Program-made: the position numbers and the translations under genes | Notes under the pieces: generated by a model | The model's database searches: none | Told to the model about the DNA's origin: nothing | What the model saw: the letters and a program-made list of their open reading frames with translations, nothing else | Shown here: positions 22,513 to 26,976 of the stretch, one piece after another | How positions within the stretch are numbered: position 1 is the first letter of the stretch | How the letters are laid out: every line of letters begins with the position of its first letter | Sequence record: OL451225.1 | Source of the DNA: Escherichia phage P896 | Direction: 5' to 3' (one strand) | Length of the DNA stretch: 64,000 nucleotides

Positions 22513-23691
22513 TTATAGATATTTACGGAAACCAGCAAGAACATTCTCATCGACGTCATTGTCAATCTGGGCTACCAGGTAAGCAGACAACTCAACTTCT
22601 TGCGGTGCAGATTGCACATTATCAGAGTTAAGATATTCACGAATCCATGGAATCGGGTGCTTAGTAGATTCTAACACGATTTCACAAGGGAGACCGCATT
22701 GCTTCATACGAGAAACTGTCAGGTAATCGATGAAGCAGTTAAGAATCTCGACGCTCAACCCAGGGAGTCCACCATCTTTAAACAGATGTACGGCCCATTC
22801 TTTTTCCTGGCGATTAACTTCCATGAAAATAGCTGCGGCTTCTGCTTCGCATTCGTGAGCGATTTTAACCCATTCGTCACCGTCAACACCAGTCTGCAGC
22901 TGACGAAGAATATATTGGGTCCCCTTAAGGTGGAGCTGTTCATCACGGGCGATGAACTTCATTATCTTCGCATTACCTTCCATGATTTCCATGTTCTTAT
23001 GGAAGTTGAAAGTACATGCGAAAGATACATAAAAACGAATAGCTTCCAGGGCGTTAATAACATGCAGGCAGAGATAAAGAGACTTCATCAATGCTCGTTT
23101 GGCGATAGCTTCTTGTTTGATAGCTCGTTCCAAACGTTCGTCCGCTTCGGGAGTTTCTTTGGCCAGTTCAACAAAAGCAATCTGGTTTTGCCATTGACGA
23201 GTTTTATTCAGAACATCATCATAGTAATGACCAATGGATTCTGCGCGCTTCATGATTGCATCATCTAACAGGATTTCGTCGAATACCTTCGCCGGGTCCG
23301 TATAGAGATTTCGCATGATGTGCGTATAAGAACGAGAGTGAATTGTCTCGCTGAATGTCCAGGTCTGAATCCATGTATCAAGGCTCGGGTCAGAAACTAA
23401 TGCGGCTAATGCTGCAGCTGGAGCACGCCCCTGGATACTATCCAGAAGTGATTGGTATTTCAGGTTGTTGGTAAAAATATTTTGTTGATGTTCAGGAAGC
23501 TTATTAAATTGGGCTCCATCCATCATCAGGTTTACTTCCTCTGGTCGCCAGAAGAATGATAATTGCTTTTCTGTTAATTCTTCGAAAACTTTATGGCGCT
23601 GGATATCATAACGGGCGATGCCCAATCCTGAGCCAAAAAACATAGGCTCGGCTAAAACATCCACTGGAGTGGTATTAAAAACTGTACTCAT
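22513..23691 (-). CDS. nrdB: Ribonucleotide reductase small subunit (uninterrupted)
   Basis: 392 aa continuous ORF with class Ia R2 features; no intron. Confidence 0.95.
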   Translation of the reverse strand: MSTVFNTTPVDVLAEPMFFGSGLGIARYDIQRHKVFEELTEKQLSFFWRPEEVNLMMDGAQFNKLPEHQQNIFTNNLKYQSLLDSIQGRAPAAALAALVSDPSLDTWIQTWTFSETIHSRSYTHIMRNLYTDPAKVFDEILLDDAIMKRAESIGHYYDDVLNKTRQWQNQIAFVELAKETPEADERLERAIKQEAIAKRALMKSLYLCLHVINALEAIRFYVSFACTFNFHKNMEIMEGNAKIMKFIARDEQLHLKGTQYILRQLQTGVDGDEWVKIAHECEAEAAAIFMEVNRQEKEWAVHLFKDGGLPGLSVEILNCFIDYLTVSRMKQCGLPCEIVLESTKHPIPWIREYLNSDNVQSAPQEVELSAYLVAQIDNDVDENVLAGFRKYL

Positions 23692-23729
23692 TTTATTTCC
23701 TCAATAGCTCATCCATGAGCATAATTATA

Positions 23730-25985
23730 TCAAAGTTTGCAGGCGGAGCAGTCTTCTGCTTTAGGAGCTTCGATTTCGTAATCGTCTGTTCCGGAACCAT
23801 CTCTAGTGTTATGATAATAAAGGTTTTTTCCACCAAAATACCAGAAGTACATCAAGTCGTCAAGCATAACTGACATTGGAACTTTTCCTTTCGGATAATT
23901 CTGCGGGTCATAATACGTATTTGCCGATGCTGACTGACAAATCCATTTCAACATAATCGCGACTTGGGTCAGATAAGGTTTGTTACCCTGCTTAGCTAGC
24001 ACCCATGCGTAATCGTACAATCCTTTATTGTGCTCAATATTGGGCACGACTTGATTAAAGGAACCCTCTTTTGACTCTTTAATAGAGACTGGTCCACGCG
24101 GAGGTTCGATACCGTTTGTACTGTTAGAAACTTGGGAAGATGACTCACAAGGCATAAGTGCTGATAATGTGCTATTACGGATGCCATGTTCAACCAGGTC
24201 TTCCCGCAACTGCGCCCAGTCACAAACGTAGTTTGGAGCTGCGATTTGGTCAATCTTTTTATTGTACCAGTCGATAGGTAATTCGCCTCGAGCCCAACGA
24301 GTGTCTGAATAATATTCGCAAGGTCCTTTTTCTTTGGCGAGCTTGATTGATGCTCGGATAAGGCCATATTGTAATCTCTCGAACAGTTCATGTGTTAAAT
24401 CATTTGCATCAGCATAGGAAGCGAAATTGCTTGCCAGCCATGCAGCATAGTTAGTAACCCCAACACCCAGGTTGCGGCGTTTTTTGGCTTTCAGAGCTTC
24501 TTTAACCGGATAACCCTGATAGTCCAACAGGTTATCAAGAGCACGAACTTGAACTTCAGCCAGCTCGTTAATCTTATCTTGGTCCTGCCAGTCAAAACTA
24601 TCCAGAACAAATGCCGACAATGTGCACAATCCGATTTCAGCGTCTTCGCTGTTCACATCAGTAGTCGGGATTGCAATTTCGCAGCAAAGGTTTGATTGAC
24701 GAATCGGAGCCTTATCACGGATGAACGGAGTGTAGTCATTCACGTTATCGACGAACTGCGGATAAACCCTGGCTGTACCGGAACGTTCAGTCATGAATAA
24801 TTCGAATACATCTTTTGCTTTGATACGTTTCTTGCGAACTGTCGGGTCTTTTTCTAAGGCTTCATATAACTCGCGGAATTTATCCGGGTTATCAAAATAT
24901 GAATAATACAATTCACCGCCAGCTTCGTGCGGACTAAACAGAGTGATGTAATCATTCTTAGCCAGTCGTTCCATCATCAGGTTATTCAGCTGGACGCCAT
25001 AGTCCATATGTCTGATGCGGTTTTCTTCAACGCCCTTGTTGTTCTTCAGAACGAGTAAATTTTCAACTTCCAAATGCCAAATAGGATAATAAGCAGTAGC
25101 AGCGCCGCCACGGATTCCACCTTGTGAACATGATTTAACAGCCGTTTGGAAATGTTTCCAGAACGGAATAACACCAGTATGCTTAACTTCGCCCATACCG
25201 ATTTTCGAACCTTCGGCACGAATCATGCCAACGTTGATACCAATACCTGCGCGCTTACTGATATATTCGATGATTGAATTAGCAGTCTTATTAATTGACT
25301 TCAGGGAGTCAGCCGCTTCGATAACCACGCATGAACTGAACTGCCTGGTAGGTGTTCTGGCGCCCGCCATGATTGGCGTGGGCAACGAAACCTGTCGAGT
25401 GGATACTGCATCATAAAAACGGCAAACGTGCTTCAGACGGTCCGTTGGTTCATCCTGGTGCAGTGCCATGCCGATAGCCATGATTGCGAATTGCGGAGTC
25501 TCGTAGATTTTCCCAGTGGTTTTATCTTTAACCAGGTATTTTTCTTTAAGCTGCATCGCGCCTGCATAAGTCAAGTCAAAATCACGTTCGTGTTTGATAC
25601 GAGATTCCAGATAAGTAATCTCTTCGGCCGAGTAGCTTGACAACAGTTCCGGGTCGTATTTGCCTTCATTGACACAATAAGAAATCTGGTCAATAAAAGA
25701 ACGCGGTTCGAACTGGCCATAAACATCTTTACGCAGAGCAAACATCGTAGCCTTCGCTGCAACGTATTGGTAATCTGGTTCTTCAACCGAGATAAGCCCA
25801 GCAGACACTTTGATGATAACCGTCTGAATATCGCGAGTAGTCATACCATCGCGCAGGTGTGGTTTGATTGTTTCGTATAATTCATACGGGTCGATATTGG
25901 TTCCTTCACATGACCAGGAAAGAACTTTAATAATTTTCTGGCCATCAAAATCTTGAGATACGCCACTACTTTTTTGTACTTGCAT
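23730..25985 (-). CDS. nrdA: Ribonucleotide reductase large subunit
   Basis: 751 aa; class Ia R1 (ATP-cone N-terminus, C-terminal CxxC tail ...CSACKL). Confidence 0.95.
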   Translation of the reverse strand: MQVQKSSGVSQDFDGQKIIKVLSWSCEGTNIDPYELYETIKPHLRDGMTTRDIQTVIIKVSAGLISVEEPDYQYVAAKATMFALRKDVYGQFEPRSFIDQISYCVNEGKYDPELLSSYSAEEITYLESRIKHERDFDLTYAGAMQLKEKYLVKDKTTGKIYETPQFAIMAIGMALHQDEPTDRLKHVCRFYDAVSTRQVSLPTPIMAGARTPTRQFSSCVVIEAADSLKSINKTANSIIEYISKRAGIGINVGMIRAEGSKIGMGEVKHTGVIPFWKHFQTAVKSCSQGGIRGGAATAYYPIWHLEVENLLVLKNNKGVEENRIRHMDYGVQLNNLMMERLAKNDYITLFSPHEAGGELYYSYFDNPDKFRELYEALEKDPTVRKKRIKAKDVFELFMTERSGTARVYPQFVDNVNDYTPFIRDKAPIRQSNLCCEIAIPTTDVNSEDAEIGLCTLSAFVLDSFDWQDQDKINELAEVQVRALDNLLDYQGYPVKEALKAKKRRNLGVGVTNYAAWLASNFASYADANDLTHELFERLQYGLIRASIKLAKEKGPCEYYSDTRWARGELPIDWYNKKIDQIAAPNYVCDWAQLREDLVEHGIRNSTLSALMPCESSSQVSNSTNGIEPPRGPVSIKESKEGSFNQVVPNIEHNKGLYDYAWVLAKQGNKPYLTQVAIMLKWICQSASANTYYDPQNYPKGKVPMSVMLDDLMYFWYFGGKNLYYHNTRDGSGTDDYEIEAPKAEDCSACKL

Positions 25986-26006
25986 GTTTTCCTCTGTTAT
26001 AAAATG

Positions 26007-26055
26007 GGGTCATGCTTATAATAACGCATGACCCTGAAGCGGAATCGTATTTATA
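26007..26055 (-). promoter_or_regulatory. Late promoter (TATAAATA at 26048-26055) plus a 9-bp-stem hairpin in the nrdA leader
   Basis: Exact TATAAATA on the minus strand; GGGTCATGC-N10-GCATGACCC hairpin at 26007-26034, just upstream of the nrdA Shine-Dalgarno. Confidence 0.4.
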
Positions 26056-26115
26056 GAAGGAAGTTAAGCCCAACCATTACGACCAAAAATAAAATGCCAG
26101 CAATTTGAATATTCA

Positions 26116-26976
26116 TTAGACCGCCATCGGGGCTGCGATTGTAGGGTGGGGTTCATAGTTTTCCAGAACAAAATCAGCTGGAGACATGTGACGAGTCACC
26201 CAATATAACTGCATTTCGGTGTCCCATAAATGGAACTGTTCGGGCCAATTGATTTTCAGAGTTGGCAGAGTCTTCGGCTCTCGGCGCAGGACTTCTTTAC
26301 ATTGCTCGATGTGGTTAAGATAGATATGCGTGTTACCACCCATGAATACTAACTTACCGGGCTTGAGTCCAGTCATTTTGGCGACGATATGCAAAAGCGT
26401 ACCATAAGAACCAATATCAAACGGAAGGCCCAGGAATACATCAACCGAACGTTGATACCATAGCAGGTCAAGCTCACCATCATGTACGTTAAATTGGTAA
26501 AGCAGATGACAAGGAGGCAGAGCCATTTGTTTCAGTTCAGTTGGGTTCCATGCGGACACAATCTGACGACGGTCGGTCGGAACTTTCTTAACTTTTTCGA
26601 TGGTCTCAACCAGCTGGTCAACCCCACCAAAATCACGCCACTGTTTACCATACACTGGGCCCAGTTCACCATCAACATAACCTAATGCACGACCTTGTGC
26701 TTCAAAGTTCTGGTCCCAGATAGTCTTTTTATCAGAGCCAGCACCATGAGTAATTTCACGGAGACGTTCAACGTTCGTAGAACCTTCCAGGAACCACAGA
26801 AGCTCACCAACCACAGATTTGTATGCCAAACGTTTAACGGTCGTTGCAGGGAAGCCTTCAGACATGTCCCACTCAACTTTGGTGCCAAATGTCGCGATAG
26901 TACCAGTCCCTGTGCGGTCGTCAGTCTGATAGCCAATGTCAAATACAGTTTGAATCAAGTCTTGATAATTTTTCAT
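26116..26976 (-). CDS. td: Thymidylate synthase (uninterrupted, no group I intron)
   Basis: Continuous 286-aa ORF with full TS motifs (...ALPPCH..., ...GLPFDI...); overlaps the frd stop (ATGA). Confidence 0.95.

Follow-up and report, generated by a model that had tools for sequence, protein, structure and literature searches.

Is Escherichia phage P896 free of the mobile elements that interrupt and separate the genes for thymidylate synthase and ribonucleotide reductase in phage T4, and if so, what kind of sites has it kept in their place? The DNA analyzed here, which we call the window, is a stretch of 64,000 nucleotides (nt) from sequence record OL451225.1, and the question concerns its positions 22,513 to 26,976. 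The original prediction, made from the sequence alone, held that td and nrdB are each one continuous open reading frame (ORF) of 286 and 392 amino acids, that nrdA and nrdB lie only 38 nt apart, and that the phage lacks the td and nrdB introns of T4, the endonucleases encoded in them (I-TevI and I-TevIII), and mobE, which in T4 lies between nrdA and nrdB. All of this proved correct. With a probability of about 0.93, the locus is a standard T-even cluster with intron-less td and nrdB alleles and an empty mobE site. Under this explanation td and nrdB would be colinear alleles whose proteins are made straight from unspliced mRNA, and the nrdA-nrdB gap would be a vacant site for a free-standing endonuclease gene. 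No function would be missing from the cluster, since both the introns and the mobE gene of T4 are selfish elements that a phage can do without. The genes in question are:

26116..26976, minus strand: td, thymidylate synthase; 286 amino acids from an ATG, single ORF; Pfam Thymidylat_synt, E=1.1e-90, profile 1-266/266
23730..25985, minus strand: nrdA, large subunit of class Ia ribonucleotide reductase (RNR); 751 amino acids from an ATG; Pfam Ribonuc_red_lgC (E=1.1e-131), Ribonuc_red_lgN and ATP-cone
22513..23691, minus strand: nrdB, small subunit of class Ia RNR; 392 amino acids from an ATG, single ORF; Pfam Ribonuc_red_sm, E=5.2e-35

Continuity of td and nrdB

The ORF list and the Pfam matches, whose scores are well outside chance expectation, agree that td and nrdB are each uninterrupted. 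The td product has the same length as that of T4, matches the ThyA family (PF00303) over the full profile in one frame and carries the catalytic cysteine in a PCH motif at residue 155. NrdB likewise matches its family (PF00268) in one frame, has the FFWRPEE block with the radical-transfer tryptophan at residue 48, and is 80% identical to T4 NrdB over both exons (tblastn). The three Pfam domains of NrdA follow each other in order on one polypeptide without an intein or split, and the protein is colinear with T4 NrdA across residues 1-751 at 86% identity (tblastn). The ORF coordinates place the nrdA-nrdB spacer at 23692..23729 (38 nt) and the td-nrdA spacer at 25986..26115 (130 nt).

The RefSeq record of T4 bears out the layout given for it in the original prediction. 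There, td consists of two exons with I-TevI inside its intron, and nrdB of two exons with a defective, truncated I-TevIII inside; nrdA.2 and nrdA.1 lie between td and nrdA, and mobE and nrdB.1 between nrdA and nrdB. When the window proteins were searched against T4 with tblastn, the matches split at residues 183/184 of Td and 225/227 of NrdB. The alignment to T4 that the original prediction had proposed as a check, made at the nucleotide level, shows both insertion points to be contiguous and in frame in the window. For td, this point lies at 26428|26427, where T4 reads CTTGGGT then CTACCG and the window CCTGGGC then CTTCCG. For nrdB, it lies at 23016|23015, where T4 reads TTTTGCGT then GTACCTTT and the window TTTCGCAT then GTACTTTC. 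Protein sequence around both junctions is identical or nearly identical to that of T4.

We also looked for introns at the RNA level. At the Rfam gathering threshold the window gave no match, a result that we dropped as evidence since the introns of the T4 locus were missed at that setting too; default scans miss them because their Intron_gpI scores sit under the gathering score of 50. With permissive E-values, both T4 introns were recovered:

T4 locus positions 9596-9826: Rfam Intron_gpI, 40.3 bits (E=9e-8), gathering score 50
T4 locus positions 4509-4749: Rfam Intron_gpI, 35.7 bits (E=2e-6), gathering score 50

The same permissive scan found no Intron_gpI in positions 21900-28300 of the window, nor in the whole 64,000 nt at E<=0.1. 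Thus neither a covariance match to the group I intron model (RF00028) nor an insertion at the known sites was found, and neither a broken frame nor an intron-like structured insert, either of which would have spoken against the original prediction, was seen in the alignments and permissive scans. At the protein level, tblastn of I-TevI, I-TevIII, MobE, NrdA.1, NrdA.2 and NrdB.1 against the whole window gave no match at E<=0.01. No ORF homologous to I-TevI (GIY-YIG) or I-TevIII (HNH) lies in td or nrdB, and no HNH ORF lies between nrdA and nrdB, where the 38-nt spacer is too small for an ORF.

That the genes appear uninterrupted as an artefact of assembly or of a chimeric window is extremely improbable. 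We found nothing in favor of it, and the independent complete genomes of phages SP18, VR7, VR25, CJ20 and 212 share the colinear genes and the spacers at 95-99% identity.

The intron-less state among relatives

Megablast of positions 22000-27600 against the GenBank phage collection placed Escherichia phage 212 first (98.9% identity, 100% query cover), with Shigella phage SP18 at 98.6%, VR20, VR25, VR7, VR26 and other members of Gaprivervirus at 94-97%, and T4-level relatives at 60-80%. The window is therefore from a Gaprivervirus (Straboviridae, Tevenvirinae), one of the T4-like Escherichia/Shigella phages in the SP18/VR7 group. On its minus strand, the order frd-td-nrdA-nrdB-denA is that of the usual T-even cluster of nucleotide-precursor genes, the outer ones of which are:

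26973..27554, minus strand: frd, dihydrofolate reductase; 193 amino acids; Pfam DHFR_1, E=2.8e-21; 64.8% amino acid identity to T4 Frd
22076..22486 (in the ORF list, 22076-22492), minus strand: denA, endonuclease II with a GIY-YIG fold; Pfam GIY-YIG; 74% identity to T4 DenA; named as in the SP18 annotation

The frd stop and td start overlap in ATGA. DenA is a host-DNA degradation enzyme and not a homing endonuclease.

Across the phage collection, about 948 T-even-like records match this gene cluster (megablast). A complete td intron is present in 201 of them and a complete nrdB intron in 118, that is, in about one fifth and one eighth of the records, respectively. T4 is an outlier among T-even phages in its endonuclease load (PMC2988022). 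Intron-less td and nrdB genes with an empty nrdA-nrdB gap are thus the usual and already documented state of T4 relatives. Within Gaprivervirus, the 30 listed matches span 5555-7059 bp, lengths that intergenic ORFs alone explain, with no intron required. One intron-bearing phage, 348Ecol098PP, is a Mosigvirus rather than a Gaprivervirus.

According to blastn maps and annotations, the points that vary within the genus are the two spacers, td-nrdA and nrdA-nrdB. The latter is filled in phages P479 and DK-13. Homology between the window and these two phages stops at 23702/23704 and restarts at 23721 (blastn), and their gaps hold the following ORFs:

P479 locus 1789-2430: MobE homologue of 213 amino acids; HNH and NUMOD3 domains; phrog_655
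DK-13 locus 3192-3614: ORF of 140 amino acids, annotated 'homing endonuclease'; NUMOD1 only

The N-terminal 125 residues of the P479 protein are 53.5% identical to T4 MobE, and T4 NrdB.1 matches its last 83 residues at 89% identity. Since this one protein spans both a MobE-like and an NrdB.1-like part, the T4 genes mobE (141 amino acids) and nrdB.1 appear to be one longer endonuclease gene that has been frameshifted. In all three reading frames of the T4 mobE-nrdB.1 region (T4 locus 5717-6417), NUMOD3-like stretches occur, and nrdB.1 goes unmentioned in two Edgell-lab papers. For the DK-13 ORF, Pfam detected no nuclease domain and blastp no similarity to MobE; it may be decayed or may be a different element in the same gap.

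Gene content of the td-nrdA spacer also varies. VR20 carries there a 65-amino-acid ORF and nrdA.1 (VR20 locus 4153-4711), and VR26, DK-13 and P479 carry these two plus nrdA.2 (VR26 locus 4120-4932). Relative to VR20, exactly the bodies of the 65-amino-acid ORF and of nrdA.1 are absent from the window (197 nt and 296 nt), and the junctions of these absences lie in short repeats located at start and stop codons: GGTNTAATGAAWATTC flanking the 65-amino-acid ORF, and ATGAA / ATAAA around nrdA.1. The junction without nrdA.1 is also found in the Dhakaviruses VR5 and Esco_phi_B-01.

Such variation raises the possibility that an ancestor of the phage had the introns, mobE or both and lost them precisely, by recombination with an intron-less phage or with spliced cDNA, which would make the sites healed rather than never invaded. 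Cycles of gain and loss are the accepted model for homing elements (PMC2988022), and the ORF-precise absences in the td-nrdA spacer, the gap that is filled in P479 and DK-13 and empty here within one genus, and the NUMOD1-only gap ORF of DK-13, which without HNH suggests ongoing decay, all fit with loss. Nevertheless, no inspected Gaprivervirus or Dhakavirus record has an intron in td or nrdB, intergenic ORFs alone account for the spans of the 30 listed relatives, and neither the permissive Rfam scan of 21900-28300 nor tblastn of the window turned up any intron or mobE remnant. In addition, nt 114-131 of nrdB are of the mobE-less, T2-like type and not of the co-converted type that accompanies mobE. 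Precise secondary loss is therefore unlikely.

Candidate endonuclease target sites

If the sites were never invaded, they might still present the sequences that the T4-group endonucleases use. We compared the three equivalents in the window with the published targets:

26417..26454, minus strand: equivalent of the 38-bp I-TevI target (-27..+11 around the td insertion point); 8/38 mismatches to T4
22986..23045, minus strand: equivalent of the I-TevIII site in nrdB; 56/60 positions identical to spliced T4 nrdB
23561..23578, minus strand: equivalent of the MobE nicking region, nrdB nt 114-131; 15/18 positions match T2

The target of I-TevI spans about 38 bp, with cleavage 23 and 25 nt upstream of the point of intron insertion (PMC2988022). 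In the window, 30 of the 38 positions are identical to T4, and the cleavage motif (CAACG, matching CNNNG) is intact at -27..-23. All but one of the eight differences are synonymous third-base changes; the remaining one, A>G at +10, replaces Asn by Asp. I-TevI is tolerant of many substitutions. The cleavage positions of I-TevIII are -14/-16 (PMC1865063), and none of the four mismatches to T4 among the 60 positions of its site lies near them. MobE nicks T2 nrdB at nt 122-126, and codon 42 of nrdB is AAG in all mobE-less phages, including T2, a demonstrated substrate (PMC2790892). This codon (23566-23568) is AAG in the window too, while in phages whose gap is filled it is AAA (P479), CGT (DK-13) or CGG (T4), with many changes nearby. 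The variation at codon 42 and across nt 114-131 that we observed fits the published pattern, and polymorphisms in nt 114-131 have been proposed to protect mobE-bearing genomes (PMC2790892).

It is conceivable that drift or selection has put an end to cutting by I-TevI, I-TevIII or MobE, which would leave these alleles immune rather than naive. The eight differences in the I-TevI target, including the amino acid change at +10, are compatible with this, as are the nt 114-131 polymorphisms in the sense that such changes are the proposed means of protection in mobE-bearing genomes (PMC2790892). However, the CNNNG motif is intact, the cleavage region of the I-TevIII site is unaltered within a stretch that matches T4 at 56 of 60 positions, and codon 42 is the AAG of all mobE-less phages, T2 with its demonstrated susceptibility among them. 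Resistance is for these reasons quite unlikely.

No observation speaks against the structural side of the explanation that we prefer, i.e. intron-less alleles and a vacant mobE site; its weak points lie in what is deduced beyond that. The Intron_gpI model performs poorly on phage introns that contain an ORF, and stays below its gathering score even on those of T4, so that the RNA-level negative rests on the permissive scan and the alignments. Of the 42 closely related records, 30 were checked, and these were judged by span length only, so rare intron-bearing Gapriverviruses may exist. Finally, with 8 of its 38 positions unlike T4, the I-TevI target equivalent may not be susceptible. Nevertheless, to judge from their nucleotides, the td, nrdB and gap sites look like uninvaded targets. 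All three positions appear to retain features used by the T4-group endonucleases, and an intron- or mobE-bearing phage in a mixed infection would thus probably convert them by homing.

Neighboring sequences and comparison with known systems

Besides the optional ORFs described above, the td-nrdA spacer contains a part that is always retained:

26051-26116, minus strand: hydrophobic micro-ORF of 21 codons, unannotated; its ATG overlaps the td stop codon (TAATG)

The micro-ORF is intact and 21 codons long in 13 of 13 Gaprivervirus and Dhakavirus sequences, which represent 12 distinct nucleotide versions. (A pattern scan of IMG/VR for it gave three contigs, and the relatives were taken from the GenBank phage collection instead.) Its ATG overlaps the stop codon of the upstream gene, as TAATG or TATGA, and this gene is td in the window and a 65- or 48-amino-acid ORF in some relatives; where nrdA.1 is present, the stop codon of the micro-ORF overlaps the nrdA.1 start. 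Variable sites number 9, 3 and 13 at the first, second and third codon positions, and all replacements are hydrophobic residues or Thr. Of the other two frames, one has stops in every version and one is stop-free in four. The micro-ORF has no PHROG match and is missing from the annotation of all nine annotated records that we inspected; JS98 and CLB_P2 have an nrdA.1 call that runs upstream over it in a different frame. Its conservation pattern gives about even odds that it encodes a real, overlooked micro-protein with a single predicted membrane helix, which would be co-translated with the thymidylate synthase and RNR genes.

The stop codon of the micro-ORF falls inside TATAAATA at 26048-26055, which is the T4 late-promoter consensus and here a putative promoter. 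The same spacer holds a hairpin with a 9-bp stem and a 10-nt loop (26007-26034) ahead of the GAGG Shine-Dalgarno sequence of nrdA; a loop of this size is beyond the limits of the terminator scanner. In the 38-nt nrdA-nrdB spacer, a TATAAT hexamer lies at 23724-23729 and a small hairpin at 23707-23720; the Shine-Dalgarno sequence of nrdB is there as well. We make no claim of a MotA-box middle promoter before nrdB, as the TATAAT hexamer alone is clear in this spacer. A consensus scan for promoters and terminators found no more sites than in shuffled sequence and carries no weight.

The original prediction had also placed a different endonuclease near pseT, and such a gene is indeed present:

16853..17587, minus strand: Seg-like predicted homing endonuclease, free-standing; GIY-YIG, E=5.6e-07; phrog_314, E=1.1e-43

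This ORF has the features of a Seg-type free-standing endonuclease. Its GIY-YIG match is above the cut-off and its NUMOD3 match just so (21.0 bits vs a cut-off of 20.4), and a match to SegE_GIY-YIG is below the cut-off. It lies between cd.4 and pseT, 32 nt downstream of the latter (17620-18525, PNKP domains). Close copies are rare; the closest in tblastn are those of PNJ-9 (92% identity, annotated SegD) and WFbE185 (88%), followed at 75% by copies in Enterobacter phages. SP18 and phage 212 instead have a different segment of 692 bp in the pseT gap (16868-17621 in the window); in SP18 this segment codes, on the opposite strand, for a mob-like HNH endonuclease. A tblastn match of this SP18 endonuclease at 17623-17703 of the window is not a remnant and is merely the part of the gene that overlaps the 3' end of pseT on the other strand.

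Other candidates for mobile genes were rejected. The low-GC (guanine plus cytosine) ORF of 222 amino acids at 30352-31020, considered as a segG-like endonuclease, is the helicase loader gp59 according to Pfam. The low-GC ORF at 27551-28129 (192 amino acids, GTG start), considered as a mobile insert, is a homologue of SP18 gp249 (113 amino acids, 99% identity); it represents an upstream extension of the open frame relative to gp249 and has no Pfam match. Separately, about 475 nt at 18844-19317 of the window are absent from SP18 and phage 212. This segment lies within an ORF at 18839-19438 that matches phrog_4482 (unknown function) at E=1.7e-72.

Beyond correct annotation, the intron-less layout is of little importance, and annotated public genomes of the genus already show it. 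The Gapriverviruses that differ in gap occupancy and in the small ORFs between td and nrdA nevertheless form a convenient natural series, useful for studying how homing endonucleases invade, how the 5' region of nrdB is co-converted and how genes are gained and lost with ORF precision. P479 and DK-13 are 96-97% identical to the window in the flanking genes but differ from it by three small ORFs in the td-nrdA spacer and by altered nt 114-131 of nrdB, in addition to their filled gaps.

The closest known systems are SP18 (NC_014595), phage 212, VR25 and VR7, which have the same gene order, the same lengths of td (861 nt), nrdA (2256 nt) and nrdB (1179 nt), and the same two spacers of 130 and 38 nt, and which are 95-99% identical to the window in nucleotide sequence. 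SP18 differs in carrying an additional ORF of 76 amino acids (SP18_gp248) between frd and the gp249 homologue, which is absent at 27554/27555 of the window, and segG between genes 32 and 59, which is absent at 30372-30381. Product names in the phage 212 record (PQ765507) are off by one gene, such that nrdA is called thymidylate synthase and td dihydrofolate reductase.

Phage T2 (AP018813), the classical recipient without introns or mobE in homing crosses with T4, resembles the window in its td of 861 nt and nrdB of 1179 nt (392 amino acids), both uninterrupted, in lacking mobE, in its short nrdA-nrdB spacer (51 nt in T2) and in having AAG at nrdB codon 42. Unlike the window, it belongs to Tequatrovirus, its nrdB is only 75% identical at the nucleotide level, and its td-nrdA spacer carries two ORFs that correspond in size and position to T4 nrdA.1 and nrdA.2, with one more ORF present between frd and td. 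The T2 record is mislabelled as well, with nrdB given as thymidylate synthase and nrdA as single-stranded DNA-binding protein.

T4 itself shares with the window homologous flanking exons (amino acid identities of 59-67% for Td, 80% for NrdB and 86% for NrdA) and insertion points in conserved codons, but it has both introns, mobE, nrdA.1, nrdA.2 and nrdB.1, all of which are absent from the window.

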